Assembly (NCBI GenBank): GCA_963662465.1
Contig: OY759599.1
Coordinates: forward strand, 1,728,001-1,792,000
Reading direction: 5' to 3'
Origin: Desulfatiglandales bacterium
GTDB lineage: Bacteria > Desulfobacterota > DSM-4660 > Desulfatiglandales > Desulfatiglandaceae
Length of the DNA: 64,000 bases
Program-made: the position numbers and the translations under genes
The notes under the pieces: generated by a model
What the model was told of the DNA's origin: nothing
The model's input: the letters and a program-made list of their open reading frames with translations, nothing else
Database searches by the model: none
Shown: positions 741-40,554 of the stretch, piece after piece
How the letters are laid out: every line of letters starts with the position of its first letter
Position numbering within the stretch: position 1 is the stretch's first letter

Positions 741-999
741 GCAAATGTCCTGCCAACAAGTGGAAGAAAGTGGAAGGCTGGATTCACCCATTAATAACGA
801 AGGATTAGATTAACAGGCTGGAGCAGCGGGAAAATTTGAAATGATCGCTTTCCCTCAATATATGGAGATTCCACCAAATATTGAGGGATATACAATGCTT
901 TCAACCTTCTTTATGGTTCTCTCCTGTTTATATAACCAACCGTTATTAAAAAATGATGAAAACCTCTTGTTTTTCCCCGGTTGTTGGCAGGCCCTTTGC
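741..999. promoter_or_regulatory. Bidirectional sigma54 promoter cassette (copy 1): two -24/-12 boxes sharing one tandem-palindrome UAS
   Basis: TGGCAGGACATTTGC on minus (755-741). Palindrome pair at 852-887. TGGCAGGCCCTTTGC on plus (985-999). Both boxes fit GG-N10-GC. Confidence 0.85.
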
Positions 1000-1252
1000 G
1001 TAAACAGTTTGCATGATCCTGGTCACCATACAAACGAGGAATACCATAAAATCGAACAAGAAGGACCCATCAATCATGGAGGTTCGTTATGAAAGACGAA
1101 AGATCTGAACGATATGGCAAAACTATGTGAAACCCGCCTGTTGGCATGCCTGCGTGTCACAGCCCAGTCATTGGTTGGCGGGTTCAGTTTCCATTGACTT
1201 TTAAAGACGTTAAGTATAAAAAACAGTCAGAAATACGCCTGAAAAAAGTTTT

Positions 1253-1378
1253 GGCCTTGATTATCCTTTCTGCCACCAAATGTAGGGGCGAACCTGGGTG
1301 TTCGCCCTTTACCTGGGCAGAAACACATGTCTGCCCCTACAAGCAATATCGACGTTGGCCGAAACGATGATCAAGGCC
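1253..1378. mobile_element. MITE-like element with 23-bp inverted ends enclosing a GTAG-type REP doublet
   Basis: IRs GGCCTTGATTATCCTTTCTGCCA / TGGCCGAAACGATGATCAAGGCC (20/23 match). Internal GTAGGGGCGAAC...GTTCGCCC and GGGCAGA...TCTGCCCCTAC at 1282-1340. The right IR is identical to 9114-9136. Confidence 0.6.
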
Positions 1379-1451
1379 GATAAGACAATCAAGAAGCATC
1401 TTCCGAAGGGAATTCGATATTCATCATTCATCATTCCAACAGGGGGCAAGA

Positions 1452-2582
1452 ATGGTTGATCAGCTTGAACTGAAAAGCATAGAGTTGAAAGGGTTTAAGT
1501 CCATCGATGCAGAAGTACAAACGATAGAATTGCACCCAATAACAGTTATGCTGGGCGCCAATGGCGCTGGTAAAAGCAACCTGGTGTCTTTTTTCAAGAT
1601 GTTGAACTACATGACTACCGGCGGTCTGCAGCAATATGTGGCGGACCAGGGGTTTGCAGATTCTCTGCTGTATCTGGGGGCCAAGGTAACGTCGGAGGTG
1701 TCGGTGCGACTTCGGTTTGAGAACGCAGGAGCTAAGGATGAGTATGCTTTTGTGATGAACCGCGATGCGACGGGGCGGCTGTTCCTGAAAGAAGAGACGA
1801 TCGTTTATCATGCGATGGGAAGAGATACGTCTCAAATTCGCAAGCTCGGAGGAGGTGTGCGGGAATCTCAGTTGAAGGAGTGTTCAGAAAAGGGGGACCG
1901 GACCTGTCAGGCTGTCTATTCCCTGCTCTCACAGTGCCGGGTATTTCAGTTTCATGATACCTCGACGACCGCTAAAATCCGCGGTGAAGGCTATGTTGAC
2001 GATGCAAGGTTTCTGAGAAGCGATGGTGGAAATCTGGCTGCATTCCTGCGCCGACTACACCTCCGAGACCCCGGAAAACGATATTACGATCGCATCGTGC
2101 GTCATATCCGGTTGATAGTGCCCCAGTTCTCGGACTTCGACCTGGCGCCTTTACCGGAGAATGACAAGTATGTTCGGCTTAATTGGAGGGAAAAGGGGTC
2201 GGATTACCTTTTCGGGCCGCACCAGTTGTCCGACGGTTCCTTGCGCTTCATGGCGCTGGCGACCCTCTTTATGCAGCCGCCGGACCTTCGGCCAAGGGTC
2301 ATCGTTGTGGACGAGCCGGAACTGGGGCTCCATCCGGCAGCTATATCGGCGTTGGCGGGCATGGCCAAGGCGGCTTCGCCGGCAACGCAGGTGATCCTGG
2401 CAACCCAGTCCTCTCGATTGATCGATGAGTTCATGGCGGATCAAGTGATGATTGTCGAACGTGATGAGAAGCGATCTCGGACGTTATTTCGACGGTTGAG
2501 CGAGGAGGGGTTGAGCGAATGGCTTGAAAGATACTGTCTGAGCGATCTGTGGGAAAAGAACGTGCTGGGGGGGCGCCCGTAA
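1452..2582 (+). CDS. ABC/SMC-like AAA ATPase (AAA_21-type)
   Basis: Walker A GANGAGKSN, signature LSDGSLRF, Walker B VVDEPELGLHP, ATQS switch region. Confidence 0.9.
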   Translation: MVDQLELKSIELKGFKSIDAEVQTIELHPITVMLGANGAGKSNLVSFFKMLNYMTTGGLQQYVADQGFADSLLYLGAKVTSEVSVRLRFENAGAKDEYAFVMNRDATGRLFLKEETIVYHAMGRDTSQIRKLGGGVRESQLKECSEKGDRTCQAVYSLLSQCRVFQFHDTSTTAKIRGEGYVDDARFLRSDGGNLAAFLRRLHLRDPGKRYYDRIVRHIRLIVPQFSDFDLAPLPENDKYVRLNWREKGSDYLFGPHQLSDGSLRFMALATLFMQPPDLRPRVIVVDEPELGLHPAAISALAGMAKAASPATQVILATQSSRLIDEFMADQVMIVERDEKRSRTLFRRLSEEGLSEWLERYCLSDLWEKNVLGGRP

Positions 2583-4587: not shown

Positions 4588-4772
4588 GTATTAACTCCTT
4601 TTCGCGAGTTTCATCCCCCCCAATAGGGATATGAATATGGACCCGATTTTATGAGTCAATTTAATCATATTGAGGATATATAAAATCGTCGTACATGTCA
4701 AAAACAAGAGGTGTGGCTTACAATATTGCGAAATGTGACCGAGGATGCCGAACCTGATTGATGTTTTGCCTC

Positions 4773-4913
4773 CTGGAAACCCGATGGCGCATCAAGGGAA
4801 AGGACGGGGGAAAGGACGGGGCCGCAGAGATCCCGGGTCTCAACGCAAGTACCTTGAGAGCCAGGATGCATAAGCTCGGGATCGTCCTTAATCAGACCAA
4901 AAAGCCGGATTAA
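4773..4913 (+). pseudogene. Orphan 3' tail (Fis-type HTH) of a sigma54 bEBP gene
   Basis: Translates [36 protein letters not shown], homologous to the 26083-27825 C-terminus. Contains a 12-bp tandem duplication GGAAAGGACGGG. Confidence 0.85.
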
Positions 4914-4936
4914 GATTCGACTCTTCCAGAAGTCCC

Positions 4937-5084
4937 CCCTCAATATATGGAAGTTCCACCAAATATTGAGGGCTAACCAATGATTTAAACCTTCTTAATG
5001 GTTCTCTCCTGTTCATATAACCAACCGTTATTAAAGGATAATGAAAACCTCTTGCTTTTTTCCAATTGTTGGCAAGCCCTTTGC
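4937..5084 (+). promoter_or_regulatory. Sigma54 promoter cassette (copy 2)
   Basis: Palindrome pair 4937-4972. TAACCAACCGTTA IHF-like box. TGGCAAGCCCTTTGC at 5070-5084. ATG at 5098. Confidence 0.85.
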
Positions 5085-5174
5085 ATAAACAGTTTGCATG
5101 ATCCTGGTCGCCATAACATAAGGTGGAATACCATAAAATCGAACAAGAAGGACCCATCAATCATGGAGGTCGTT

Positions 5175-5465
5175 ATGAAAGACGAAAGAAAAGCGTACGA
5201 AGAAAAGTTGGATGCACAGTTGAAGGAATGGAATGCGCGGATCGCTCTGCTCAAGGCCAAGGATGAGAATGCCAAGGCCGATGCGAAGATGGATTACCAC
5301 AAAATCATCGAGGCATTGGAGCACAAACAGGGTGAAGCCAAGGCCAAGTTGACGGAGTTAAAAACCGCCGGCGATGAGGCATGGGAATCCGTCAAAGCAG
5401 GTGCGGAAAAAGCCTGGACTGAAGTCAAGACCGCCTATCACGATGCGGCCTCGAAGTTCAAATAA
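5175..5465 (+). CDS. Small coiled-coil stress protein (Sll1863-like)
   Basis: RBS GGAGG. MKDERKAYEEKLDAQLKEWNARI...AWESVKAGAEKAW. Start placed at ATG 5175 rather than 4998. Confidence 0.8.
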   Translation: MKDERKAYEEKLDAQLKEWNARIALLKAKDENAKADAKMDYHKIIEALEHKQGEAKAKLTELKTAGDEAWESVKAGAEKAWTEVKTAYHDAASKFK

Positions 5466-5502
5466 GGCAGGGATTCTGAATAGAAAGGGGGTAAATGAAC
5501 CC

Positions 5503-8500
5503 ATGGATACTCCTGAAAGCGAGCCGCTTCGCAAACATTGGCTGATGAGAGTTTTGCTGGGCAAAGCCTTCATCGTCGCTGTTGCCCTTATGATCACCTA
5601 CACCCTGGCGGGCTTTTTTCTTGCCCCTTATCTGATCAAGCGCCAGGCGATCCGGTTTGCCCAGGAATCCCTCAAGTGCCTCGTGGTCATGGAAAAGGTC
5701 CGGGTGAACCCATACACTCTCACCCTGGAAATCAGGAACTTCGACCTCAAAGAAAGAGACGGATCCCCGCTACTCGCATTCAAGTCGTTTTTCATCAACT
5801 TCGAGATCGCCAGTCTCTGGCACTGGGCCTGGACCTTTGCGGATGTTCGCATGGATGGCCCGGTCGTGAACCTGCAAATAAAACCTGAGGGCCGCATCAA
5901 CTTTGTTGATCTTGCAGACCGGATCCCAAGAAAAGAAAATGAAGGGAAAACTTCCCTGCAAGAAAAACCCGAAGAAAAGGCGCCCCCGCCGCGCGTCATC
6001 TTTGAACACATTGCCTTGAACCAGGGGCAACTCTTTTTCACGGACCGATCCGGCCCCACTCCCGGCAGTATTGTGCTTGAGACGATTGGCCTGGAACTCA
6101 AAAACCTTACCACGCTGCTGGACAAGAAGGGCGTCTATTCCATTGAAGCAACCCTTCCCTACGGCGGAAAGCTCGCAGGGGCCGGGGATGTTTCCCTCCA
6201 TCCTCTCTGGTCCGAAGGCAGGGTAAAAGTGGAGGGATTCAAGACCGTTTCGGCATGGGCGTTTTTGCAGGATGAAATCCTGGTGAACAAACCGGGGGGT
6301 GAAGTAGACCTCGAAGCCCGCTACCGATTTGAAAATGCGGCAAAATCCCCTTCTTTTGTCATTGAGGGATTGAAAGTGCTTGTCTCGGCCCTGGAACTCA
6401 AGGCCCGGGGGGACCGGGAGCCGATTCTCGCAGTTGACGCCATTCGTCTCGATGACGGCCGGTTTGATCTGGCCTCTCGATCGCTCCAGGTGGGGGCGTT
6501 GGCGCTTTGCCGGGGTCGCGCGACAGCGGACATCAACGAACAGGGGCGGTTGAACTGGCAGGCGCTTTTAAAGGCCGGCGGAGAAGTCCGGTCTTCCGCC
6601 CAAAAGGTGGCGCCCTTGGAAGGACCGCCATGGCGCGTGGCGCTCAAGACCCTCAGCCTTGATGATTTCACGGTGGCCTATAGTGATCACAGCAGGTTTT
6701 ATCCTCTTGAAATAGGCGTTTCCAGACTCGGTGTGAAGGGCAAGGCCGATCTTTCTTTTATGCCTGAGAAAGTGGGGGTCCTGGCAGAGAATTTTAATGT
6801 CCTCTTCGAGGGCGTATCCTTGAAAGAGACGGGGCAGGATGCGCCCCTGGTCACCCTGGAAAGTCTTGCCGTGAAAGAAGGCCGCATGGACCTTGAAACC
6901 CGACAGGTGACCCTGGAGAGGATCATGATGGAAGGCGGGCATGCCGCCATGGTGCTGGAAAAGACCGGCAACCTGAACCTGTTGCGCGTGCTCGGAAGGA
7001 GAAATGTCGGCAAACTTCGAGAAAAAATTGCAGGCGCCGTGGAAAAGGCGCAAGCTGAAGGACGGCCCTGGTCTGTTGCCGTCGGCGCACTGGCTGCGGC
7101 CGGGTTGAACGTCGCTTTCAGGGATCAGACGCTTTCGCCCGCGCCCGCCGTGAACCTTCAAGACATCTCGCTGAAGCTTGCCGATTTCCACAGTGAAGGC
7201 AAGACCTCTGCTCCCTTTGAGGTGTCTCTAACGGTACAGGAAGGGGGCGCCGTGAATGCCAAGGGACGCTTCACTCTCACTCAAAAAAGCGCTGAAGCGA
7301 CTGTGCATGTGTCGAACCTGGCCCTGACGCCTTTTCAGCCCTACGTGGCACAATACGCCTACCTGAGTGTGGATGCGGGGAATTTCAACGCTGCGGGAAA
7401 GGTGCGCTATGGTGAGGGGGAAAAAGGCCCGAACCTGCAATTCTCCGGCGATGCGCACATCCTTGATCTGCTCGTTTCCGAGTTGGGCGCCAAGTTGCAA
7501 ACCAAGCCGGATACCACTCAAAAATTTCTTGCCTGGCATGCCTTGAAGGCGAACAATATCAAGCTGGGCCTTTGGCCTGAACGTCTTGACATCGGAGAAC
7601 TCCGCCTCATAGAGCCGTACGGAAAGCTGATCATATATGAAGACATGAGCCTGAACCTGACCAAGGTGCTGCGGCATAAAGAGGAAACGGTTGAGGAAAA
7701 AAAACCGGTGTCCCAAGGGGAAACTCCCGGCGGGTTTCCGGTGGATGTTCGGAGAATCCGCATCGAGAAAGGCGTCCTCGATTTCGCGGACCTGAGTCTC
7801 CGCATACCATTTGCCGCAAAGATCTATGAATTGAAGGGAGCCATCGTCGGGCTCTCCACGAAAGAAGGCGCGCGGGCGCGGATTCAGCTCGAGGGCAAGG
7901 TGGATGAATATGGCATGTCCAAAATCCAGGGGCAGATTGAGTCGCTCAATGTCAAGCATTTCGCCGACATCACCATGATTTTCAAGAACGTGGAGATGAC
8001 CAACCTCACCCCTTACACGGGGAAATTCGCCGGGTACAGGATCAGCTCCGGAAAGCTCTCCCTTGATCTTCATTACCTGATCGAGCAGAGTGAACTCAAA
8101 GGGAGCAACCAGATCATCCTGGACAACCTCACGCTGGGCGAGAAGGTGGAAAGCGCCCGCTTCGCCTGACATCCCCCTTGAGCTCGCCCTTGCGCTCCTG
8201 AAGGATGCTGATGGTCGGATTGACATCGGGCTCCCGGTTTCCGGCAACCTGGATGATCCTCAGTTCAGCTACGCGCATCTCATGTGGAAAACCCTTATCA
8301 GCTTTTTCACCAAAATCGTCACTTCCCCTTTCAGAGCACTGGCCGGCATGCTCGGGGTGGAACAAGAGAATTTCGAGACCATTGGGTTTGAGCCGGGTCG
8401 GGCCGTGTTGCTTCCTCCTGAGCGAGAAAAAGTGAAGACCCTTTCAGAAGCGCTTGCCAAGCGCCCGCAACTTGCGCTGAAAATCCAGGGCCGGTTTGAT

Positions 8501-8986
8501 CCGGTTGCAGACGGTGAGGCCCTGAAGTCCATGCTGATCCGGCTCGAAATTGCCGGACGGACGGGTAGAAAGGTGGGTCCCGGCGAAGATCCGGGGCCGG
8601 TGAATGTGAGCAATCCGCTGGTCCAGCAGGCCATCGAGATAATGGTCATGGACCGAATTTCCGCCGATATGCCGGCTGCGGCCAAGGAGAGTGCGGCAAA
8701 ACGGGCGGCGGTGATGGACAAGGAAGCCGGAAAAGCTGCCGCGCTCCCGCCGGACCTGCCCCGTGAGCGTTACACCGCCCTGCTGCAAAAACTTATGGAA
8801 GCGCACCCGGTGACAGAAATCCGCTTGAATGAATTGGCCCGTGAACGGGCGGAAGCGATCAAGCGGGAATTTGTGGCAGCGGGGACGATCGATGAGGGGA
8901 GGCTGACGGTCCTTGAACCCTCAGCTACCCAAGAAAACAACGAGAAAACCGTATCTTCCGAGCTCACCCTGGATGTTCGTCGTTGA
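5503..8986 (+). pseudogene. DUF748-domain (AsmA-like) protein, frameshifted near 8150-8165
   Basis: Repeated DUF748-like units. The conserved 'LTLGEKVES...PLELALALLKDADGRIDIGLPVSGNLDDPQFS' is split between ORFs ending 8169 and 8986. Could be a sequencing error. Confidence 0.75.
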
Positions 8987-8991: not shown

Positions 8992-9136
8992 TGATCATCG
9001 TTTCGGCCATTTGCCACCAGGGGTTGAAACCCCTGGCTATTATCAACCGTCCCTACAGGACGGTAAAAGCCCCATCGGGGCGACAGACAATAGCCCGGCA
9101 ATTTATTGCCGGGTGGCCGAAACGATGATCAAGGCC
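8992..9136. mobile_element. MITE-like element with 18-bp perfect inverted ends, internal REP-like hairpins and a long flanking direct repeat
   Basis: TGATCATCGTTTCGGCCA (8992-9009) / TGGCCGAAACGATGATCA (9114-9131). Direct repeat CGTCGTTGAGTCCATG at 8978-8993 and 9136-9151. Hairpins CCAGGGG-TTGAAA-CCCCTGG and CCCGGCAAT-TT-ATTGCCGGG. Confidence 0.7.
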
Positions 9137-9151: not shown

Positions 9152-9210
9152 TGAGAGCAAGGATCCATAAGCTCGGGATACTCCGGCCGGGGACCAAGGT
9201 GTCGGATTAA
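9152..9210 (+). pseudogene. Orphan bEBP 3' tail without downstream UAS
   Basis: Translates [18 protein letters not shown], almost identical to 27767-27825. Confidence 0.85.
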
Positions 9211-9223
9211 ACTGCCTTTTTTG

Positions 9224-9538
9224 TTATTCTTCCAAGCCTTCCCGATAGCCTCGTTTAAACTCGGATTTAGCCATTTTAAAGCTGTTTTTATACATATCCC
9301 AGATGCTTTCCGCGCCTTGCTTAAGATCCTCCCAGGTATTTTCATTTGCATCACGGATCTTTGTAAGCGTTTGTTGTGCCTCTTCCACGTTTTGACGAAG
9401 CGCTTTGATCTGCTCCTCGTACTTGATTTTCGTCTTTGCATCCGCCTTCGAGGTTTCTCGGTCTAATCCCTCAATATCCTTATCCCATTCGTCAAGCTGC
9501 GCTTTGAGCCTTTCCAAATAGGCCTCTCTGGTAGTCAT
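9224..9538 (-). CDS. Small coiled-coil stress protein (Sll1863-like)
   Basis: RBS GGGAGG. MTTREAYLERLKAQLDEWDKDI...TWEDLKQGAESIW. Paralog of 5175-5465. Confidence 0.8.
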   Translation of the reverse strand: MTTREAYLERLKAQLDEWDKDIEGLDRETSKADAKTKIKYEEQIKALRQNVEEAQQTLTKIRDANENTWEDLKQGAESIWDMYKNSFKMAKSEFKRGYREGLEE

Positions 9539-11566: not shown

Positions 11567-11880
11567 TTATATCAGGCCATGGGCTGCGGCGTAGCGCACC
11601 AGATCGGCGGTGGTGTGAATGTTGAGCTTTTGCATGATATGGGTGCGGTGAGTGTCTACGGTCTTGATGCTGATGTGCAGGATTTTGGCAATTTTTTTGT
11701 TACTGAAGCCCAATGAAATACTTTTCAGAACTTCCAGTTCCCGCGGCGTCAATCGGGATTTGTTTTCGTTGCCTGTTGCGCCACCCGCGGACAACCGGGA
11801 TGTAACCGCCGGGCTCACATAGGTTTCCCCTTTTCCCACAGTCTTCAGGGCTGTCATCAATTTGCGATCCGACGCTCCCC
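11567..11880 (-). pseudogene. C-terminal part of a NarL/LuxR-family response regulator, 5'-truncated at the promoter cassette
   Basis: LTPRELEVLKSISLGFSNKKIAKILHISIKTVDTHRTHIMQKL HTH plus only the end of a receiver domain. The ORF start at 11914 lies inside the palindrome. Confidence 0.8.
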
Positions 11881-11888
11881 AAAGCTTA

Positions 11889-12034
11889 CCCTCGATATAT
11901 GGAGGTTCCACCAAATATTGAGGGTAAACGATCCTTCCAAACTTTTCCGCTGTTCCATCCTTTTAACCTAATTTATTGTTATTAATGGATAAATCCATCC
12001 TTCCGCTTTCTTCCACTGTTGGCAGGAGATTTGC
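11889..12034 (+). promoter_or_regulatory. Sigma54 promoter cassette (copy 3), upstream of the DGC/HK/HD-GYP operon
   Basis: Palindrome pair 11889-11924. TAATTTATTGTTA box. TGGCAGGAGATTTGC at 12020-12034. ATG at 12048. Confidence 0.85.
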
Positions 12035-12071
12035 ATTGCATATTTGCATGAGTTTGATCATCATACGAATA

Positions 12072-12161
12072 CACTGAATATCCCTACCGAAATACCGGTG
12101 CTATGAGCTGTATAAGCAGCTGCGGCCTGTCAAACATTACTATTTGGGGAATTCAGAATCT
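12072..12161 (+). pseudogene. Remnant of gpmA 3' region
   Basis: Closely similar to ~21590-21682 (CTGAATAT..CTACCG..AAACATTACTATTTGGGGAATTCAGAATCT). Confidence 0.85.
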
Positions 12162-25909: not shown

Positions 25910-26082
25910 GTAGTTCGACTGAAAGTCTTGACCATTCCCCCCGAATATGGCAATCTGATCCAATTCAGGAAAACATAACCCTCATTTAAAATTCATTCGG
26001 TGCTTATTGAAATTTAAGTTGATTTAAATTCCAATCGCGAAATGGGATTTTGTCTGGTGGGTGGTAGGCATTGGGGATTGGG

Positions 26083-27998: not shown

Positions 27999-28113
27999 AG
28001 ATACAATTTGCATGATCCTGGTCGACATATGAATGAAACGGTTGTTTATTCCTCTATCCTTGCTGGGACCATCGTGGCGATTCCGGCTTTGCCGAAGCTG
28101 GGAAAAAAATCTC

Positions 28114-28406: not shown

Positions 28407-28496
28407 ATGAGTACTACAACACTTATTCTTGTCATTGTCGTTTTGTTACTATTATTCGGCGGGGGTGGCGGTTACTATTGGCGTAGACGGCGGTAG
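28407..28496 (+). CDS. 29-aa membrane peptide (DUF3309-like)
   Basis: RBS GGGAGG. MSTTTLILVIVVLLLLFGGGGGYYWRRRR*. Confidence 0.75.
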   Translation: MSTTTLILVIVVLLLLFGGGGGYYWRRRR

Positions 28497-28606
28497 GTAT
28501 GTCGGGTGCCGCTGATTGGAGATTGATATCTGATCTGGATGTCTTTTTTGTTCGAGTGGGAAAACCTCCTTTCGAGTGGCATCCTCTGCATAATTCTTAC
28601 AAAAGG

Positions 28607-28710
28607 ATATGGAGGTTCCACCAAATATTGAGGGAAGACCAGACATTCCATACCCTGCCGCTACACGCTCCTGTTAACCTAACGAACTGTTATTAATTCA
28701 GTAATCCAAA
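28607..28710 (+). promoter_or_regulatory. Partial promoter cassette (right part of palindrome plus IHF-like box; -24/-12 lost)
   Basis: ATATGGAGGTTCCACCAAATATTGAGGG at 28607-28634 and TAACGAACTGTTA. No GG-N10-GC at the expected place. Confidence 0.7.
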
Positions 28711-28765
28711 ATTCTGTGGGGGATTGCGCTTGTTGAGCTGTTTAAAAAAATCAAAGGCGGTTGTC

Positions 28766-29302
28766 ATGAAAAGATATCTATTTTCCAGAATGGTTGTAAC
28801 AGGGGTTGTAGTCGTGTTGATAAGCTTTGGCGTCAACGCATTTGCAGAAACGGGCGGAGGCTCCGGAAAAATTGTCGTCATTCGGGATTCCGATGGCGAC
28901 GGGGTGTCTGACAACCTGGACAAACGTCCGGGAACCCCGAATGGTGCAAACGTAAACCAGTTTGGTTACTGGGTCCTCGAAAATGTGCTTTTTGATTTTA
29001 AGAAATATGACATCAAACCACAATTCTACGGATACTTAGACCAAGTCGCAGTAGTTTTTGAGAAGAATCCTTCCATCAAAGTGCAAATCCAAGGAAATAC
29101 GGATAACATCGGGACTGCGGCCAACAACATAAAAATCTCTTTAAAAAGAGCGGAAGCTGTTATGAACTATCTCATCAAAAAGGGCGTTGCCAAAAACAGG
29201 CTTTCGGCCAAGGGGTATGGTTTCACAAGACCGATAGCCACCAACGCAACAGCAGAAGGCAGGGCGCTCAACCGGAGGGTCGAACTGAGACCCATTCCCT
29301 GA
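28766..29302 (+). CDS. OmpA-family peptidoglycan-binding protein with a TSP3-like DxDGDG motif
   Basis: Signal peptide, DSDGDGVSDNLD, VLFDF, IQGNTDNIG, SLKRAEAV, GRALNRRVE. Confidence 0.9.
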   Translation: MKRYLFSRMVVTGVVVVLISFGVNAFAETGGGSGKIVVIRDSDGDGVSDNLDKRPGTPNGANVNQFGYWVLENVLFDFKKYDIKPQFYGYLDQVAVVFEKNPSIKVQIQGNTDNIGTAANNIKISLKRAEAVMNYLIKKGVAKNRLSAKGYGFTRPIATNATAEGRALNRRVELRPIP

Positions 29303-29360
29303 AGATTCATCAAACTCCGTGCAGGTACGGAGGATACCATGCCGCCCTATGCAGGCAAAA

Positions 29361-29488
29361 TTTGAGCGCCTGGGCTCCTCCCGAGTACCTTGAGAGCAAG
29401 GATGCATAAGCTCGGGATCGTCCGGCCGGAGGCCAAGGCGCCGGATTAACCTGTCCCGCTATCCTCAAAAACGCCCTCAACATATGGA
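29361..29488 (+). pseudogene. Internally deleted bEBP remnant plus left part of the palindrome
   Basis: TTTGAGCGCCTGGGCTCCTCCCG (=27253-27275) joined to CCCGAGTACCTTGAGAGC...GGATTAA (=27756-27825). CCCTCAACATATGGA at 29474-29488. Confidence 0.85.
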
Positions 29489-29599
29489 AGGGTTTCACAA
29501 AGAAAAGGGAAAGAGACGTAAACGCGTACGACGTGAGGTATTCAGTGTAAATCGTCAAGAAGACAAAAACAAAACATTACAAAAAAAGGAGAACGTACC

Positions 29600-30466
29600 A
29601 TGAAAGCAATACATTCTGCAGTTCTGATGGCAGCCGCATTCGCTCTGCTGGTGATCAGCGTGCCCGTTTATGGGTCCAAAACGGATAACGGCATCGAATC
29701 ATCGGCCAGGAAGACTTATGTTTTCAGGACCTACCTCAAGGACGATGACATTAAGATCCAGTCCAAAGACGGCGCCGTCACCTTGACGGGGACTGTCGCC
29801 GAAGAACCTAATATAATGTTGGCCCAGGCGACCGTGGAGGGCTTACCAGGGGTCAAGAGTGTGGACAATCAGCTGAAACTGAAGGATGAACCAGGCGCCG
29901 GAAGCCCGGACGCGCTGGTCAGTGCAAGAGTGAAGCTTGATCTGTTGTCCCATCGCAACCTGCGTGGCAGTAAGACGGACGTTCAAGTGAAAGATGGGAT
30001 CGTCACCTTGAGCGGCGAAGCCGAGAACCAGGCCCAAATCGATCTGACGACCGAATACATCAGGGACGTCGAGGGCGTCAAGGATGTGAAGAACGATATG
30101 ACCCTGTCGGTGGCCGAAAAAACGATGGGCGAAAAGGCCGGGGACGTGGGCAAGAAGATCGGCGATACGGCCAGTAGCGTGAGCAAGAAGATTGGTGATA
30201 CGGCCGGGGACGTGGGTAAAAAGATCGGCAACACGGCCGGTGATGTGGGGGAATGGATCGATGACGCATCCATTACCGCTTTGGTCAAAGGGACGTTGCT
30301 GTATCATCGTTCGACCAGTGGCCTCAACACCAAGGTCGAGACGACCAAAGGCGTGGTCAAGTTGACTGGCTCGGCCAAGAACCCATCCGAGAAGGAATTG
30401 GCTACCAAATTCGTGGAAGACGTTTATGGCGTGAAGAGTGTCAATAACCAGATGACCATCAAGTAA
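29600..30466 (+). CDS. Secreted triple BON-domain (OsmY-like) protein
   Basis: RBS AGGAG and signal peptide. Three BON units (DGAVTLTGTV..GVKSVDNQL; DGIVTLSG..GVKDVKNDM; IDDASITALVK..GVKSVNNQM). Confidence 0.92.
   Translation: MKAIHSAVLMAAAFALLVISVPVYGSKTDNGIESSARKTYVFRTYLKDDDIKIQSKDGAVTLTGTVAEEPNIMLAQATVEGLPGVKSVDNQLKLKDEPGAGSPDALVSARVKLDLLSHRNLRGSKTDVQVKDGIVTLSGEAENQAQIDLTTEYIRDVEGVKDVKNDMTLSVAEKTMGEKAGDVGKKIGDTASSVSKKIGDTAGDVGKKIGNTAGDVGEWIDDASITALVKGTLLYHRSTSGLNTKVETTKGVVKLTGSAKNPSEKELATKFVEDVYGVKSVNNQMTIK
30128..30259 (+). repeat. Four tandem 33-bp (11-aa) repeats in the BON gene
   Basis: GEKAGDVGKKI / GDTASSVSKKI / GDTAGDVGKKI / GNTAGDVGEWI. Confidence 0.9.
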
Positions 30467-30791: not shown

Positions 30792-30971
30792 ATGAAATCA
30801 AGCACAAAGGACGAGGCAGAAGGCAAGTTGCACCAAGTGAAGGGTAAGATCAAGGAGATCGCCGGGAAAGTCATCCTGAATCCTGACTTGGAGGCCGAAG
30901 GCAAAAAGGAAAATAAAACCGGCAAAGTTCAAGAAAAAATCGGTGAGATCAAGAAGGTCGGTGGTAAGTAA
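30792..30971 (+). CDS. csbD: CsbD-family general stress protein (59 aa)
   Basis: RBS AGGAGG. MKSSTKDEAEGKLHQVKGKIKEIAGKVILNPDLEAEGKKENKTGKVQEKIGEIKKVGGK*. Absent from the ORF track. Confidence 0.88.
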   Translation: MKSSTKDEAEGKLHQVKGKIKEIAGKVILNPDLEAEGKKENKTGKVQEKIGEIKKVGGK

Positions 30972-31021: not shown

Positions 31022-31171
31022 ATGCTTTGGACCATATTTGTAATTCTTTTGATTCTGTGGGTGCTGGGTTTGTTGACAAGCTACACGATGGGTGGCGCCA
31101 TCCATATCCTGCTGGTCATTGCCATCATCGTGGTGCTGATCCAGGTGATTCAAGGACGAAGACGAGGGTAA
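31022..31171 (+). CDS. lmo0937-family small membrane protein (49 aa)
   Basis: RBS GAGGAG. MLWTIFVILLILWVLGLLTSYTMGGAIHILLVIAIIVVLIQVIQGRRRG*. Confidence 0.88.
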   Translation: MLWTIFVILLILWVLGLLTSYTMGGAIHILLVIAIIVVLIQVIQGRRRG

Positions 31172-31202
31172 CCATCTAAAGCGGCAAAGCCGCAGTTTTA
31201 AG

Positions 31203-33130
31203 GGGCGACCTGCAGCCCCAGTTTTCTAAGTGACAGTGATAGTCTGTCTATGCTGTACCGCAAAATGGCATAAGGTCAACATTAGGATTATCTCTCCGGA
31301 GGCAAAGTTTCCGTCGTGCCCATCGAACGGGAACGCCGGAGGTAAGTGACTCACTACGCCGTAAGGCGGGTGGGAGAAGGGCTTGAGACCGATGCTCAGA
31401 TCCGATTTCAGATGCCTAAGCGACGGCCGGCATTTGATTAGACCGAGGTGGCGTGGCCGTGGGACGAGGGTACCTTAAAGCCTGTAGTCCGGCCCGTTGG
31501 GGGAAAAGACGGGATCAAAGTCGAGGCATATTGCGGATAGCCTTGCTGGAAACGGTTATAAGTGATTAGGTTTGGAGAGGAGCAGAATAGAGAACTGGGG
31601 TGACCGGGTGAGATCTTGTGGAAGTCTCGCAGAATGCGAGTAGGGAACTGGGAACCTGATGCGACCATGAGAAGTCAGCGCCGTCATATTAGGCACATGG
31701 GGTCAACCTGTGCCGAAGGACGACACCGTGAAAGGTAGGTAAAGGGATATTGCGCGGGCAGGGGTACGTTCCAAGCGAAAACGGCCCGGAACTGGCAGAC
31801 AGTACCGCCGTGGTATACAGACCTATCTGGTGTAGGATGGTATCAATTGGCTAAGATTTTACACAGTGTCATAGACAAAGTTTACAACTGGGTCAACCTG
31901 GAAAAGGCATCGGCCAAGGTAATTGCCAACCGAGGCAGTGCCGGTGTTGACGGCATGGATGTGAAGGCATGGAGAGGCAAACTTAAGGAACACCTGAGCA
32001 CTTTACGGCACAGACTGATGAACGACACCTATCGGAGCAAGGCGGTCAAGCGGACTTACATTGACAAGCCTGGCAGCCGGAAGAAGCGCCCACTGGGTAT
32101 TCCGGTGGTAGTGGATCGCGTGTGTCAGCAAGCTGTGCATGCGCAGCTGAGCCCTGTGTTTGAAGAATACTTCCACCCAAACAGCTATGGTTTCCGTCCG
32201 GGGCGCAGTACACATACTGCTGCCGTCCAGGTTCAGGAGTTGAGAGGCAAAGGATATGGCTATGTGGTAGATCTTGACATCAGAGGTTTCTTTGACCATG
32301 TGGATCATGAAATCCTGATGAAGTTGGTCGGCAAGGTGGTGAAGGATCGACGGGTCCTGGGCCTGATACGCGGCTGGCTGACGGCTGGAGTAATGGAGGA
32401 GGGCAATATACGCTTTCAGGTCTCCGGCACACCGCAGGGTGGGGTAATCAGTCCTTTACTGAGTAACATTTACCTCACAGTGCTGGATAATGCGTTGGCG
32501 GCAAAAGGACATCCATTTGTCCGATATGCCGATGACGTGGTAATTTTCTGCCACGGGCGCGAGCAAGCAGACCAAATACTTGTCTATGTACGCCAGGTAC
32601 TCAGCGAGCTCAAGCTGGAGCTTAACGATGAAAAGACCTGCGTGCGGTCATTTTCCGAAGGATTTGATTTTCTTGGATTCCATTTCAATACGCGTGGGAT
32701 GAAGGTCGGGACCAAATCGCTCAAAGGCCTGTACCGTAAGGTGCGGGAGGTAACCCGACGGCAACAAGGTGATCTACCTGTGGAATTACTGATAGAAAGG
32801 CTCAATCCGATTTTGAGAGGGTGGGGCAACTATCACAAAAGAGGCCGCAATGTAGGACTGCTCACAAGGCTGGATAGATGGGTAAGAAAGCGCTTGCGTG
32901 CTTATATACACAAGCGTTGGCGTACCACTGAAGGGCATCCGTCTAACAACGAACTGGCCCAAAAGGGATTGGTGTCAATGCGAAGCATTATCCGGCCAAG
33001 GTGGCATGGTCAATTGCTGCTGTTTGAAGCTCCCCGGATGGGGTAATTCACGGGACCGCCGGATGCGGGAAAACTGCCTGTCCGGTGGTAACGGGGGCTT
33101 GGCTCTGGCGACAGAGTCATTCTACCCACT
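31203..33130 (+). mobile_element. Group II intron (ribozyme plus RT/maturase ORF)
   Basis: 5' GGGCGACC after hairpin GCGGC-AAA-GCCGC (31181-31193). Domain V ACCGCCGGATGCGGGAAAACTGCCTGTCCGGTGGT (33055-33089). Domain VI ending CTACCCACT. Boundaries inferred to about +/-1 nt. Confidence 0.85.
31847..33046 (+). CDS. ltrA: Group II intron reverse transcriptase/maturase, no endonuclease domain
   Basis: AGVDG, RPLGIP, SYGFRPGRS, DLDIRGFFD, GTPQGGVISPLLSNIYL, RYADD, FDFLGF, LNPILRGWGNY. Confidence 0.95.
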   Translation: MAKILHSVIDKVYNWVNLEKASAKVIANRGSAGVDGMDVKAWRGKLKEHLSTLRHRLMNDTYRSKAVKRTYIDKPGSRKKRPLGIPVVVDRVCQQAVHAQLSPVFEEYFHPNSYGFRPGRSTHTAAVQVQELRGKGYGYVVDLDIRGFFDHVDHEILMKLVGKVVKDRRVLGLIRGWLTAGVMEEGNIRFQVSGTPQGGVISPLLSNIYLTVLDNALAAKGHPFVRYADDVVIFCHGREQADQILVYVRQVLSELKLELNDEKTCVRSFSEGFDFLGFHFNTRGMKVGTKSLKGLYRKVREVTRRQQGDLPVELLIERLNPILRGWGNYHKRGRNVGLLTRLDRWVRKRLRAYIHKRWRTTEGHPSNNELAQKGLVSMRSIIRPRWHGQLLLFEAPRMG

Positions 33131-33218: not shown

Positions 33219-34341
33219 ATGAATAAACTCAAGCAAATTTGGAGCCATCTGCGGTCAAGCTTTTGGTTTGTGCCTTCGCTGATTGTTGCCGTCAGCATCG
33301 CCCTCGCCGTGGCTTTGATTGGAGCTGATTTCACAGAGAGCGAACAATGGCTGGCTCGTTGGCCGCGCCTGTTTGGCGTCGGCGCGGATGGCGCACGCGG
33401 GACGTTGTCCACGATTGCCGGATCGATGATGACCGTGGTGGGGGTCACGTTTTCGATGGTTTTGATGACGCTGGCGCTGGCCTCAAGCCAATACACCTCG
33501 CGCATCCTTCGGAACTTCATGCGTGACCGTGTCACGCAGGTTGTGCTCGGAATCTTCGCTGGTATTTTCACCTATTGCCTGATCGTGTTGCGGACCGGTT
33601 GACAGCGATGAGGACCCGGCAGTACTCACTCTGCCGGCGCAACACTGGCATGCCGTCCCGGCCAGGAGGAATGGTTACATCCAAGGCATGGATAATGCGG
33701 CGCTCCTGCGTTTGGCTCGGGAGTACAACACCATTGTGCGGATGGAACGGGGCATCGGCGATTTTGTGGTCTATGACGCCACGCTGGCTTCGCTCGCTTT
33801 GGAGCTCCCGCCGGGACAAGAGCTCATCACCGCTCTGCGGGAGTCCTACCGCATCGACCGGTATCGCACGGTGGAACAGGATCTCGCTTTCGGCGTCAGA
33901 CAGATCGTGGACATAGCGTTACGGGCGCTATCCCCCGGCATCAACGACACCACGACGGCCGTGATATGTGTGGATTATCTGACGGCGATTCTGGCACGGC
34001 TGGCCTCCCGGTCAATCCCTTCATCGCACCGCTATGAGGACCGGGAATTGAGGGTGATCGCCATCGGACCCACCTTTTCAAGCCTCGTGGCCGAAGCGTT
34101 CGATCAAATTTGCCGCAATGCCGGCGGCAATGTCGCCATCATGTTACGGATGCTTGGCGCGATCCAAACCATCGCCGGTCTGACGGCCGGCCCGAGCCGA
34201 CTGCGGGCGCTCCGTGAACAAGTGCAATGGATCGCTGAATTGGCCGAACGTACCACCGAGTCCCCGCACGACCGGGCACGGCTTGAGAGCCGGCTGGCGC
34301 GTGTGCGCGAAGCACTCGAAACAGAGCCGTTAGGCAGATAG
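33219..34341 (+). pseudogene. DUF2254-family membrane protein, disrupted near 33600
   Basis: SFWFVP, LALASSQYTSRILRNFMRD in the first ORF. GYIQ, RTVEQDLAFG, DIALRALSPGINDTTTA in a second frame. The junction looks like an internal deletion with frameshift. Confidence 0.8.
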
Positions 34342-34375
34342 GGGTTTCTCTACGTTGAAATCAGGAGACATAATT

Positions 34376-34849
34376 ATGCGCAAACGAATCATCATCCCAG
34401 TTCAGCAAGAAACGGCATCACCAGACCTGGCCTGGTTGAATCTGGAAAAACTCGCGGAGGTGGAAATCACCTCGGAGGACGCTGATCATCCAATTGAGTC
34501 CGCGTTGCTTCCCGTTCGAGCCTCGGGGTGGCGTGCCGCAGGGCCTGGAAAGCAGACGATCCGGCTTCTGTTCGACGACCCGCAACGGCTTCAGCGGATA
34601 TGGCTGAACTTCGTGGAGACCCGCACTGAGCGCACGCAAGAATACGTCTTGCGTTGGTCGCCGGATGGTGGGCAGTCGTTCCGAGAAATCGTGCGGCAGC
34701 AGTGGAACTTCAGTCCCCAAGGCGCAACCAGCGAGACGGAAGACCTTCACGTCGAACTCCCGGCGGTCACTGTGCTCGAGTTGAGTATCATTCCGGACAT
34801 AAGTGGGGAAAATGCGTTCGCTTCTTTAGCGCAGTTGAGGCTTGCCTAA
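34376..34849 (+). CDS. Conserved beta-rich protein (putative carbohydrate-binding/galactose-binding-like fold)
   Basis: RBS AGGAG. VEITSED..PIESAL..GWRAA.PG.QTIRLLFD..ERTQEYVLRWS..EIVRQQWNFSP. Start placed at ATG 34376. Confidence 0.75.
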   Translation: MRKRIIIPVQQETASPDLAWLNLEKLAEVEITSEDADHPIESALLPVRASGWRAAGPGKQTIRLLFDDPQRLQRIWLNFVETRTERTQEYVLRWSPDGGQSFREIVRQQWNFSPQGATSETEDLHVELPAVTVLELSIIPDISGENAFASLAQLRLA

Positions 34850-34931
34850 GCGTATCCGGCGGATAGCCAAAAGCGCCACGCCTTTTGCTATCGGAAAAGT
34901 CCCACCACTTTTTGCCGCCGCTGATGCAAGT
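34844..34931 (+). other. Degenerate attC-like site, right end replaced by the promoter cassette
   Basis: GCCTAA(G) overlaps the stop codon and is complementary to GTTAGGC (34329-34335) upstream of the gene. Stem ATCCGGCGG..AAAAG / CTTTT..CCGCTGAT. Confidence 0.55.
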
Positions 34932-35125
34932 GGGGACCAAGGTCTCGGATTAAACGTCCCCGCTACCCTCAAAGACTCCCTCAGCATATTGAGGTTCCAC
35001 CACATATTGAGGGCAAATCAGCCATTCCATACGCTGCCGCTATACGCTCCTGTTGACGTAACGAACTGTTATTAGTTAAGTAATCCAAAATATTGCCGAT
35101 TCGCGGTTGTTGGCAGGATGGTTGC
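34932..35125 (+). promoter_or_regulatory. Sigma54 promoter cassette (copy 7) with last 22 nt of bEBP gene
   Basis: GGGGACCAAGGTCTCGGATTAA at 34932-34953. Palindrome pair 34978-35013. TAACGAACTGTTA box. TGGCAGGATGGTTGC at 35111-35125. Confidence 0.85.
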
Positions 35126-35590
35126 ACTTCCCAGTTCCATTGACGGCTGAGAAAACAAGCATGCTTCCGCTTCCACCGATCGTGGACGGACAGTGGATCA
35201 GCAAGAGGAGAGATGAAGAACAAAACGACTCATTCGAACATCGGCCTCTCCCCGGCCTTGCCGAAGCGGAAAAGGAATCTGAACGATATGGCAAAACGAT
35301 GTGAAGACATGAATGAAGAGAGCAAGAACGGCAGTTCGAAAGATGAAGTTATGAGATGGGCCGGTATTGGGCCGGAGCTTGTTGCGTTCGTGTTGGAGTT
35401 TATCGAAAAGCCCGAGATCCTCTTTTCGATGTCTTCTGAAAGACGCAACGAAATTGAAAACCAGATGGACGCAATTCTATCTTCGTTAATTCCAACCTGG
35501 GATAGATGATATGTCGAACCAGTATGGGAGCAATATAGACGAAAAGCCAAAAACACATGAAAGGTGACTTTGCCCATGGATAGAATCACT

Positions 35591-36728
35591 ATGGATATAT
35601 TGAAACAAGCGTTTCTGGACCGCCATTCCGGCTGGTGTGTCTCGCTGTTCATGCCGACGCACCGGGCGGGTTGGGGTATGGAACAGGGTCCGATTCGTTT
35701 CAAGAACCTGCTTCGGGAGGCGGAAGAACGCCTCACTGCAAAAGGTTTGCGCGCTCCGGAGGTTCAGGAGTTGCTCAAAGAGGCCCAGCGGTTGTTGCAG
35801 GATCGGGGTTTCTGGCGGCGGCAGAGCGACGGCCTGGCCGTATTTTTTTCCGCAGACACATTACACTTTTTCAGACTGCCGATGGTCTTCAAGGAACTGG
35901 CGGTGGTTTCCCATCGTTTTCATGTCAAACCACTGCTTCCGATTTTAGCCGGCGACGGCCCTTTTCACATCCTGGCCCTCAGTCAGAACCAGATTCGGCT
36001 GCTGGAAGGCACAACGGCATACGGTGGACGAAATCGCGCTGGATGCTACAGCCCAAAGCCTCTCCGAAGCCTTTCCGGAGGTATCCACAGAGAAGCAATT
36101 GCAGTTTCATACGGGCACGCCATCGGGAACAGGAAGCCGCGCGGCAATGTTCCATGGGCATGAGGGCAGCAACGAAGACAAAAACATGATACTCCAGTGG
36201 TTTCGCATGATCGACAGGCAGGTGCGCGATTTGCTTCCAGACGGACAATCACCACTGGTCCTGGCTGGGGTCGACTCGCTTTTTCCCATTTACCGGGAGG
36301 TGAACACCTATCCACATTTGATGGAAGGGGGGATTCCGGGAAATCCCGAGGGTTTGAAGCCCGAGGAACTCCATGGTCAGGCATGGGCGCGGGTGGAGTC
36401 CGTATTCAAAAAAGCGCGGGAGGCGTCGGCAGCCCGCTACCGTCAACTGGCTGGCACTGGACGGACTACCAGTGACGTCAAGGAAGCGGTTTTGGCCGCC
36501 CATCACGGGCGGATCGATGTGCTCTTTGTCGCCGTCGGCGTACAGATATGGGGAGGGTTTGATCCGGAAAAAGACAAGGTTTATATGCACGATCCCCCTG
36601 AACCCGGCGATGAGGACCTCCTCGATTTAACGGCAATCCAGACCCTCATCAATGGAGGCACGGTTTACGCCATTTTGCCGGAAGAAGTCCCTGATCACGC
36701 GCTTCTTGCAGCGCTGATGCGGTACTGA
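35591..36728 (+). pseudogene. Bacterial archaeo-eukaryotic release-factor-like (baeRF) protein, frameshifted near 36010-36025
   Basis: CVSLFMPTHRAG..IRFKNLL..DGLAVF..FHVKPLLP..LALSQNQIRLLEG in one frame. LQFH..PLVLAGV..GNPE..GRIDVLFV..DLLDLTAIQTLINGGTVY..ALMRY in another. Confidence 0.75.
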
Positions 36729-38457: not shown

Positions 38458-38682
38458 ATGATGGAAAAATGCACTTATGGGCCTGGAAGCCTTGTGAAAG
38501 GTTGGAAAATAGGGATTATGGTATTGGTGATGGCTTTTTCATTCGGGTTGGCTTCATGTGAAAAGGAAGGGCCGGCGGAAAAGGCCGGCAAAAAAATGGA
38601 TAACGCCATGGAAAAAATGGGAGACCAACTGGAAAAGGCGGGGGATAAAGTGAAACAGGCGACCGACAAGGTGAACCAATAG
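38458..38682 (+). CDS. Small lipoprotein (CEKEGPAEKAGKK type)
   Basis: RBS AGGAGG. Hydrophobic stretch, lipobox LASC, Lys/Asp/Glu-rich helix. Confidence 0.8.
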   Translation: MMEKCTYGPGSLVKGWKIGIMVLVMAFSFGLASCEKEGPAEKAGKKMDNAMEKMGDQLEKAGDKVKQATDKVNQ

Positions 38683-38881
38683 CGTTTGACATGAAGATGC
38701 TTCTTTATTTGCAGGAGTGTGGACGTGCATCAACCAAAGAACCCAAGGAAAATAAAACCTCCCAACACGGGACTTATTACCGAAAATGTCACCAACTGGA
38801 GGCTCGCGGAACGTCAGTCGCAATTGAAAATTTCTGTCGGCCAGAGGCGGCGATGAAACAGGAGAAAAGAACAACCGTCCT

Positions 38882-40057
38882 ATGACCCCCATTGTTTCAA
38901 ACAATCAGATCACCCTGTTGCAGCACGGTGAAGCTTATTTCCCGGCGATCGAAACGGCGCTGGACCGGGCGATTCATGAAATTTATCTGGAAAGCTATAT
39001 TTTCGAAAATGACAATACCGGACGACGCATTGCCGAAGCGCTCAGGCAGGCGGCCCTTCGTGGGGTAAAGACTCATGTCCTGATCGATGGATTCGGTTCG
39101 ATTAATCTGCCGAAAACCATGGTTGATCATCTTAAGGGGGCCGGCGTAATGGTGCTCAAGTTCCGGCCCAAGACATCGCCCTGGACGTTTCAGCGGCAGA
39201 GATTGCGCCGTTTGCACCGGAAAATAGTAGTCGTGGACCAGACGATTGCATTTGTCGGAGGCATTAACATTATTGACGACGTGGATATGCCGGATGAAAC
39301 ATCTCCTCGTTATGATTACGCCGTAGGTGTGGAAGGACCCCTGGTGAAAGAAATTTATGCATCCGCACGCCGGGTATGGAGGCGAGTGGCATGGACCCGT
39401 TTACGTTCCGGGTGGGGCCGGGAAAGCCACAGATATGCTTTTACAACCGAATCCGGGGGCCGTATGGGTGCAGCTTTTCTGGTACGGGACAATATCCGCC
39501 ATCGCCGCGATATTGAAGAGGCCTATCTACAGGCAATTGGAAAGGCTCAATTCGAAATTATTCTTGCAAATGCCTACTTTCTCCCCGGACTGAATTTTCG
39601 TCATGCCCTTCTCAATGCAGCCGGGCGCGGTGTCCGCGTGATATTGCTGTTACAGGGAAGGGTGGAATATCGACTGCTGCATTATGCCTCGCATGCCCTA
39701 TACGGCAGCTTTTTAGATGCGGGGATTGAGATCCACGAATATCACAAGAGCCTCATGCACGCCAAAGTTGCCGTGATTGATGAACATTGGGCTACGGTGG
39801 GATCATCAAATCTCGACCCCCTCAGCCTGCTTCTTGCTCTTGAGGCAAATGTCGTTGTGGAGGATGAAGGCTTTGCCAAAGTATTGAAGGTAAGCCTGGC
39901 GCTGGCGATCAAGACAGGGGCCCGACGCATATTTAAAGGTAACTTGAGAACGCAGAACTTCCGCATGCGATTAGCGAGCTGGCTGAGTTACGGTCTGGTG
40001 CGATTCATGACCGGAATGACGGGGTATGCCCCCGGGAAACAATCCGGCCGGGCATAA
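38882..40057 (+). CDS. clsB: Cardiolipin synthase B
   Basis: Two HKD motifs (LHRKIVVVD, MHAKVAVID), GEAYFPAI, ANAYFLPG, VGSSNLDPLSL. No N-terminal TM segments. Confidence 0.88.
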   Translation: MTPIVSNNQITLLQHGEAYFPAIETALDRAIHEIYLESYIFENDNTGRRIAEALRQAALRGVKTHVLIDGFGSINLPKTMVDHLKGAGVMVLKFRPKTSPWTFQRQRLRRLHRKIVVVDQTIAFVGGINIIDDVDMPDETSPRYDYAVGVEGPLVKEIYASARRVWRRVAWTRLRSGWGRESHRYAFTTESGGRMGAAFLVRDNIRHRRDIEEAYLQAIGKAQFEIILANAYFLPGLNFRHALLNAAGRGVRVILLLQGRVEYRLLHYASHALYGSFLDAGIEIHEYHKSLMHAKVAVIDEHWATVGSSNLDPLSLLLALEANVVVEDEGFAKVLKVSLALAIKTGARRIFKGNLRTQNFRMRLASWLSYGLVRFMTGMTGYAPGKQSGRA

Positions 40058-40320
40058 CCAGCGAACCTTAACCGTCGTTGTTGGGGGCGAGAAATGATCC
40101 CTCCGCTCATGGCATCCGGCAAGATCAACGTTCCCCTTTACGGGTCGGAAGGATTCCGCCGAAGGGACCCTTTCCGTATCCGATGCCTTACGGGTTTTTT
40201 TCCATTCGAACGCTGGTTGCCGCCAAGCAAACTGATTTGAACAAACAGATTATCACCCGCATCGTGCGGGATTACAAAAGCAAATCTCTTGCAACCGATT
40301 TTATCCTATAAAGAAACCCC

Positions 40321-40554
40321 TTGAGAGTTCGTATGAATAAGCCCGGGCTCGCCCGCAAAGGGACTCAAAGGCGGGATTAAGATCTGACGACGCTCCCCAA
40401 AGGTCACCCTCAACATATGGAGGTTCCACCAAATATTGAGGGGAAATCAACCATTTTATACGCTGCCACTACTCTCTCCTGTTGACCTAACGACCTGTTA
40501 TTAAATCATTAATCCGAAATATTGCCGATTCGCGGTTGTTGGCAGGATAGTTGC
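40321..40554 (+). promoter_or_regulatory. Sigma54 promoter cassette (copy 8) with degenerate bEBP tail
   Basis: LRVRMNKPGLARKGTQRRD* at 40321-40380. Palindrome pair 40407-40442. TAACGACCTGTTA box. TGGCAGGATAGTTGC at 40540-40554. Confidence 0.85.

Follow-up and report, generated by a model that had tools for sequence, protein, structure and literature searches.

A 64,000-nucleotide stretch of the chromosome of a Desulfatiglandales bacterium (contig OY759599.1, positions 1,728,001 to 1,792,000; hereafter the window) carries repeated copies of an intergenic module laid out like a sigma-54 promoter with its enhancer, namely two 16-bp dyads in tandem, an integration host factor (IHF)-like box and a -24/-12 box of the form TGGCA-N6-TTGC. 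Dyad pairs start at 853, 4938, 11890, 20540 (minus strand), 20776, 27851, 34979 and 40408, and the boxes lie at 985, 5070, 12020, 20907, 27984, 35111 and 40540 on the plus strand and at 20440 and 755 on the minus strand, making up nine full sigma-54 enhancer-promoters, all present where an initial annotation of this DNA had placed them. From the end of the dyad pair to the -24 box, the nine measured 98, 98, 96, 97, 99, 98, 98, 99 and 97 bp, the same 96-99-bp range that had been reported before (the chance of TGG-N8-TTGC falling 94-101 positions after a random genome position is 0.00075). The first copy is a two-way module (727-1038, both strands), in which the dyads (853-886) stand between a plus-strand box (985-999) followed by the stub of an ABM gene start and a minus-strand box (755-741). 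At 4749-5115 (plus strand), a decayed helix-turn-helix (HTH) stub from bacterial enhancer-binding protein (bEBP) coding sequence (4749-4910) precedes the dyads (4938-4971), the -24/-12 box (5070-5084) and an ABM-start stub from 5098. Two more plus-strand modules, at 11868-12092 (dyads 11890-11923, -24/-12 box 12020-12034) and 20772-20957 (dyads 20776-20809, box 20907-20921), also carry an ABM-start stub, and an inverted module lies on the minus strand at 20406-20702 (bEBP HTH stub 20701-20603, dyads 20574-20540 with a 3-bp gap, box 20440-20426). The remaining full copies, all on the plus strand, comprise one in what appears to be the ancestral place (27851-28037; dyads 27851-27884, box 27984-27998, a six-codon ABM stub), one at 34932-35140 (short bEBP stub, dyads 34979-35012, box 35111-35125) and one at 40319-40858 (bEBP stub, dyads 40408-40441, box 40540-40554) that includes the sole intact ABM gene among the window's parts (40568-40858), with its ATG 13 nucleotides past the -12 box. 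Also on the plus strand are two partial copies recognized earlier, one within 28600-28717 (28607-28717; first dyad damaged, without the -24/-12 box) and one with its dyad at 29475 (29369-29501; bEBP HTH stub and first dyad), and a fragment overlooked until now (9152-9238; final bEBP codons and spacer, ending just before the dyads). The homologous unit exceeds the bounds first drawn for it, taking in part of the bEBP gene on its upstream side and part of the ABM gene on its downstream side. No module in the window matched Rfam over the gathering score; two adjacent Acido-Lenti-1 RNA matches on opposite strands lie at 9017-9113.

The module looks functional, resembling a working sigma-54 promoter with its enhancer. 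Across 73 aligned promoter arms, column conservation was 0.91 and 0.93 in the two dyads, 0.90 at -24 and 0.97 at -12, compared with 0.67-0.69 in the spacers, in keeping with the selection on the motifs that had been proposed. A -24/-12 box, which was not part of the search pattern, lay 95-100 bp from the core in 111 of the 118 cores with enough flank (among the matches listed). In 35 of the 73 arms, the reverse strand agrees with the IHF consensus to within one mismatch at a constant position (at most 12 in any other bin), and the genome has an RpoN gene and eight IHF/HU-family genes. The predicted layout of tandem dyads and -24/-12 box, with a candidate IHF-like box between them, is borne out in the sequence, and the combination of upstream activator sequence (UAS), IHF site and -24/-12 box is the textbook sigma-54 design (PMC7175178, in part). 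Matches in RNA runs X7 and X11 came only from contigs of relatives at 88-95%.

A genome-wide profile search counted 14 full promoter arms in this genome (G000), besides five partial pieces. Twelve of the 14 arms lie between -47 kb and +41 kb of the window (about 88 kb, or about 1% of the 8.16-Mb chromosome), so the earlier claim of ten or more copies in a 40-kb island stands as to copy number but not as to extent. The other two arms form a head-to-head pair at 3,091,070, remote by 1.3 Mb; there (G000:C1; L005 9900-10300), one dyad pair has a promoter on each side and precedes a GNAT gene, and this two-way copy and its flanks are conserved in three other genomes (G004, G006 and G016). About 20 module pieces occur in G010, a genome of the same genus. 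The repeats are real rather than the assembly artefact that the initial annotation had thought worth checking, because contigs of run X1 bridge three module-flank junctions with zero differing letters (34365-35108, 39763-40441 and 28477-29409; X1 is possibly the source sample, hence not independent evidence) and G010 shares the same promoter-target pairs at 94-99%.

Several copies retain coding remnants that point to a donor. The HTH end of the bEBP is encoded in the 100-150 nucleotides that precede several copies (4749, 9151, 20701 and 29372), and the dyad pair starts 25-28 nucleotides after an intact bEBP stop. In other genomes, among the matches listed, a bEBP C-terminal match lies just upstream of 45 of 123 cores, a long bEBP match was found in 18 of the 68 loci with long flanks, and ATGAT stands 12-14 nucleotides past the -12 box in 72 of 111 promoters, where it translates as the ABM start, either of the whole gene or of a few-codon stub before another gene. 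In 32 promoters the ABM frame is open to an EEW motif, and a Shine-Dalgarno-like word was found in the short leader of none of the 32. With the usual sigma-54 start distance, the ABM ATG is expected within about 3 nucleotides of the start site, which, together with the absence of such a leader word, suggests that the founding ABM transcript was probably leaderless.

The bEBP gene directly upstream of the ancestral-place module (26071-27825, plus strand) encodes an intact protein with coiled-coil/PAS, AAA+, Fis and HTH parts, including Walker A, GAFTGA, Walker B, R-finger and HTH motifs (best NCBIfam match FhlA, under the cut-off). Among 401 genomes of the phylum, the dyad core occurs in 22 (14 of 256 genera) and an orthologous HTH (E below 1e-23) in 24, with the core in 19 of those 24 genomes vs 3 of the 377 others; read directly, four of the five HTH-only genomes have the full module and one its first dyad, and the three genomes with the core but without an HTH match are fragmented. 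The protein, already proposed as the predicted activator, is likely to be both the cognate activator and the donor of the upstream stubs. The genome also has a second, stop-containing bEBP copy at 93% identity. More telling than the co-occurrence is that, among 20 relatives further removed (55-64% HTH identity), several show 16-bp dyads in tandem past their own bEBP stop, in the same frame and with other symmetric letters (GTC...GAC vs TCA...TGA). A paralogous bEBP-ABM-FtsH locus about 58 kb before the window (L001 9665-13689) has a different tandem dyad, and a module-ABM-FtsH order was seen in relatives, suggesting an older common layout.

At least 124 loci were recovered from the genome collection by pattern scan, all from metagenome-assembled genome (MAG) records and mostly from Desulfobacterota or deltaproteobacteria; two (L037 and L042) place the module on short contigs of archaeal and Bacteriovoracaceae MAGs, for which mis-binning or transfer is possible. 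Among the matches listed, kaiB lies just upstream of the bEBP in 11 of the 18 long-bEBP loci, with kaiC too where the flank reaches. Genes in the order kaiC-kaiB-kaiB directly precede the bEBP in L173 (11522-13397) and 11 other loci, and another PAS protein comes after the kaiC-kaiB-kaiB cluster that G000 has at 4.60 Mb.

Judged by gene family, the targets are largely general-stress genes. In the window, the minus promoter of the two-way module is followed by a short sll1863-family stress-protein open reading frame (ORF; 508-690, minus strand; matching model positions 1-44 of 93 only), and the module at 4749-5115 by genes for an sll1863-family protein (5163-5453) and a DUF748 protein in two ORFs (together 5163-8986, plus strand). 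Genes for PAS-GGDEF, hybrid kinase and HD-GYP proteins (12255-19081) lie behind the module at 11868-12092, a repeat-containing ORF (20356-19919, minus strand) behind the inverted module, gpmA (20984-21730) and a class I aldolase gene (22032-23144) behind 20772-20957, and a small ORF and a split baeRF gene behind 34932-35140. The partial copies precede an OmpA-domain gene (28724-29302, behind 28607-28717) and genes for BON/OsmY (29600-30466), CsbD (30792-30971) and lmo0937/DUF5670 (31022-31171) proteins (behind 29369-29501), and further target families in the window include ClsB, ABM and glycosyl enzymes. Elsewhere, the first genes include CsbD, lmo0937, OsmY, sll1863, OmpA, OmpW, CreA and an RpoH/RpoS-like sigma factor, and 22 of the 42 proteins scanned in other genomes had no NCBIfam match. 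The targets had been described as unrelated, which does not hold functionally for several of them, most being general-stress genes. In L042 (1898-2764) and L173 (15452-16330), the RpoH/RpoS-like sigma-70 gene sits behind the module or close to it, and such a gene behind the module would make a sigma-54 to sigma-70 cascade. Two products contain in-frame tandem repeats, of 18-bp units at 20145-20274 (the ORF behind the inverted promoter) and 33-bp units at 30119-30283 (the BON protein).

Together, these results lead us to favour, with a probability of roughly 0.7, the reading that an ancestral bEBP-ABM promoter has spread by ragged local duplication and recombination into a sigma-54 stress regulon. 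The two 16-bp dyads would bind two dimers of the adjacent PAS-bEBP, and the IHF-like site would bend the DNA so that the activator could meet RpoN-polymerase at -24/-12, about 98 bp downstream. By homology, the ancestral home is the gap between the bEBP stop and ABM, often in the order kaiC-kaiB-kaiB-bEBP-promoter-ABM. Growth would have come about through ordinary local duplication, deletion and recombination in a rearrangement-prone stress island, probably with ragged pieces copied, new genes fused just past the start site, the stubs left to decay and the promoter kept by selection. Crossovers in the dyad pair, probably RecA-dependent, would swap flanks and create head-to-head two-way promoters, and the output may be co-induction of CsbD, lmo0937, BON/OsmY, sll1863, OmpA, cardiolipin synthase and cyclic di-GMP enzymes.

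The island itself is a mosaic. Its 109 internal repeat matches involve, besides promoters, the bEBP, the CsbD-lmo0937-BON genes and DUF748, DUF2254, radical SAM and LuxR pieces. It also holds a group II intron reverse transcriptase and several families of insertion sequence (IS), and its blocks recur in G010 in scrambled order. An IS-like element with a DruA/DDE_Tnp_1_assoc ORF (23989-25911) has a 99.9% identical copy about 21 kb before the window and an X1 depth of about 12-fold; the intron reverse transcriptase (31202-33046), which has the lmo0937 gene on one side and a split DUF2254 gene on the other, also has raised X1 depth, suggesting several copies. The DUF748 (5374-8986), DUF2254 (33219-34341) and baeRF (35564-36728) genes are each split into ORFs, which suggests decay of duplicated cargo, and a partial ATP synthase alpha gene and a gamma subunit gene lie in the island just before the window (L004 12812-14900). 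In a tree of the spacers (built without one diverged arm, G010 81523 minus), most window copies neighbour a G010 copy with the same target, and for this reason many fusions predate the split or were exchanged.

This pattern bears on the best surviving rival, in which in-genome duplication is rare and the copies are xenologous, having arrived as whole stress islands from related lineages. Several observations are consistent with arrival from relatives: the module is scattered thinly over the phylum (22 of 401 genomes, 14 of 256 genera), a Geobacteraceae and a Syntrophaceae spacer are alike at 76% (vs 40% for shuffles), the window copies are divided among four or more clades that also include copies of G010, G006 and G004, and G010 has several long bEBP copies at 88-93%. 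However, copies in other lineages form same-genome or same-genus clades (bootstrap 98 for a G302 pair, 100 for G419 pairs, 100 for a G329 pair and 98 for a G397 pair), and this clustering indicates local duplication there; ABM stubs before new genes also require a fusion event wherever it occurred. An integrase, tRNA site, plasmid or phage carrier was not found, with no module match in viral contigs or plasmids and no tRNA genes in seven stretches scanned around the island. Accretion, which is compatible with the local-duplication reading and does not exclude it, is thus unlikely as the sole source of the copies.

The ends of the copies bear on a second rival, a portable element, either resembling the miniature inverted-repeat transposable elements (MITEs) or a promoter cassette mobilized by an enzyme. 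Mapped with a profile of the intact bEBP-module-ABM locus, 5' ends in this genome fell at -400 or beyond, -156, -128, -107, -89, -87, -84, -47, -21 and about 0, and 3' ends ranged from +24 to +459. In the phylum set, 5' ends were scattered from -400 to 0 (the core was demanded by the search), and 75 of 83 3' ends lay beyond the -12 box, piling up at +143 to +215. The 81 copies with both ends visible (a tally that omits seven training loci) were full on the ABM side in 15 cases, a stub in 40, promoter only in 18 and broken in 8; on the bEBP side, the match was long in 10, a stub in 27 and absent in 44. The element is suggested by its 14 full arms here and about 20 pieces in G010, by copies in both orientations, by the remote copy 1.3 Mb off and by the many IS elements in the island. 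Against it, a test for terminal inverted repeats and target-site duplications at nine copies gave nothing beyond 4-6-nucleotide chance matches, in agreement with the earlier statement that no transposon ends belong to the module; moreover, the ends vary continuously, host-gene stubs occur on both sides, and 12 of the 14 arms sit in about 1% of the chromosome, where other island segments are duplicated as freely. We regard a portable element as largely refuted and improbable. Because of the ragged ends, the duplicated genes and the copies shared together with their target gene, what moved was apparently the promoter plus a variable flank, and the module, as its sequence context has it, is the retained, selected core of larger variable duplications of the bEBP-ABM intergenic region. 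The proposal that the whole promoter was copied as a unit therefore holds in the sense of common descent but not in that of a discrete cassette with fixed ends: promoter duplication is supported, and portability as an element is not.

Chimeras place the joins at the enhancer. Of the genus and family copies, 44 in number, 6 change their nearest relative along the copy, and every switch interval overlaps the 34-bp dyad pair. For example, the copy at 27851 is 90-95% like one G010 copy through its upstream side and dyads, but immediately past the dyads this likeness drops to 52% and the match, at 86-100%, is to another clade; the copy at 4938 likewise switches at the dyads, and the two-way promoter at 727-1038 has arms from two clades joined at the dyad pair. 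Crossovers would be expected to fall there, because the 34-bp pair is near-identical among otherwise diverged copies and almost palindromic, and the simplest agent of the switches would be homologous recombination seeded by this single invariant tract. A lox site has 13-bp inverted arms around an 8-bp spacer, and the core can be read the same way, so a third rival takes it as a lox/FRT-type site of a tyrosine recombinase that shuffles promoter-gene cassettes; the overlap of the chimera switches with the core fits as well. However, three of the six switches have intervals that miss the 8-bp spacer, the letters vary in the manner of a 16-2-16 layout with four half-sites of equal standing (of which a 35-bp variant exists), sister bEBPs keep the layout with other letters, and none of 58 tyrosine-recombinase matches falls in the island, leaving this rival very unlikely. 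More tentatively, and with odds against it as a whole, the enhancer, which activator binding would hold almost invariant, may double as a preferred crossover anchor for recombinase-free shuffling of cassettes, by which targets would continually be rewired, added and inverted in an undescribed sigma-54 general stress regulon of anaerobic Desulfobacterota whose activator would be gated by a non-clock KaiC/KaiB and whose founding transcript would be leaderless. An independent, site-by-site origin, which the initial annotation had set aside in favour of promoter duplication, or an assembly artefact is refuted by spacers that align throughout and carry gene stubs, by copies that diverge by 5-45% and have counterparts in G010, and by the junction contigs.

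Several points weigh against the spread of one promoter by local duplication and recombination. The majority of copies in the window resemble G010 copies more than one another, so that they predate this genome or arrived from relatives, and in-genome duplication may not apply to every one of them. Since alignment ends are approximate, short 5' ends may reflect decay rather than breakpoints. The chimera test is sensitive only near the core, and the six chimeras are not independent (two reciprocal pairs). Ends of synteny blocks fell in modules in 7 of 57 cases when compared with all bases (p=0.005) and in 7 of 37 when compared with non-coding bases (p=0.19), and given the latter value the module does not stand out as a hotspot from other shared intergenic DNA. 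The co-occurrence of bEBP and module is partly trivial, because they adjoin; the G000 bEBP has no flanking kai genes and is preceded by an IS-like element; and some targets (gpmA, aldolase and GNAT) are not classic stress genes.

The target set resembles the SigmaS/SigmaB general stress regulons, with which it shares overlapping families (CsbD, OsmY and ClsB), but here a one-component PAS-bEBP, in many cases preceded by kaiC-kaiB-kaiB, apparently exerts control together with sigma-54. Promoter capture by duplication was reportedly described by Blount in 2012 for citT in a laboratory line of E. coli. There, as here, a rearrangement sets a new gene behind an existing promoter, although that was a single laboratory event, whereas the present case is repeated, phylum-wide and fixed and involves an enhancer-type promoter. 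Correia elements, ERIC and REPIN have defined ends and transposase links, and the present module has neither. Those elements are multi-copy intergenic DNA with promoter activity (PMC3575422). Putative mobile promoters are upstream regions of high similarity that recur, inside one genome or across several, in front of genes unrelated to each other and without a known mobile element; their families are mostly pairs of unknown function and route, and cases with paralogous flanks were filtered out (PMC3575422, Nijveen 2012). Under the Nijveen/Matus-Garcia definition (at least 80% identity across 50 nucleotides or more upstream of different genes), 11881-12017 and 20767-20903 are 88% identical over 137 nucleotides, before diguanylate cyclase and gpmA; with regard to paralogous flanking coding sequence, the targets differ and many copies keep decayed bEBP/ABM stubs. 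The present family differs from putative mobile promoters in that a genome has 14 arms, the enhancer-promoter anatomy is defined, there is a candidate regulator, the donor can be traced and crossovers fall inside the enhancer. In Desulfovibrio vulgaris, bEBP regulons comprise mostly one to four operons and at most 12 (PMC4641369, Kazakov 2015, in part), and the parts seen describe a similar arrangement of UAS dyads, IHF-assisted looping and a GAFTGA activator beside its target promoter; there, however, motifs are shared, whereas here the whole 150-bp promoter is homologous and the donor can be read from stubs. The promoter design and the idea of promoter reuse are both known already. The literature gave no account of the dyad, the bEBP family, the island or a Kai-linked sigma-54 stress regulon (subscription journals mostly uncovered), the parts seen of PMC12316311, PMC2996986 and PMC3543383 do not mention the system, and the dyad is not in the part seen of PMC4641369, although the supplements of that paper and of PMC12316311 and PMC3543383 could still list the motif; it is absent from 12 of the 15 supplements of PMC2996986, of which the remaining three could list it.

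Whether a regulator gains targets through point-mutated sites or through copied promoters is usually argued from indirect data. Here, the route of regulon growth is directly testable, because stubs name the donor, more than 100 versions have been sequenced and the chimeras can be dated. The module could also serve as a natural sigma-54 enhancer-promoter part that is compact and comes in many sequence variants, its bEBP is a candidate master switch for general stress in uncultured anaerobic Desulfobacterota, and the copies constitute a rare readable record of how a regulon may grow under one switch in such uncultured anaerobes.

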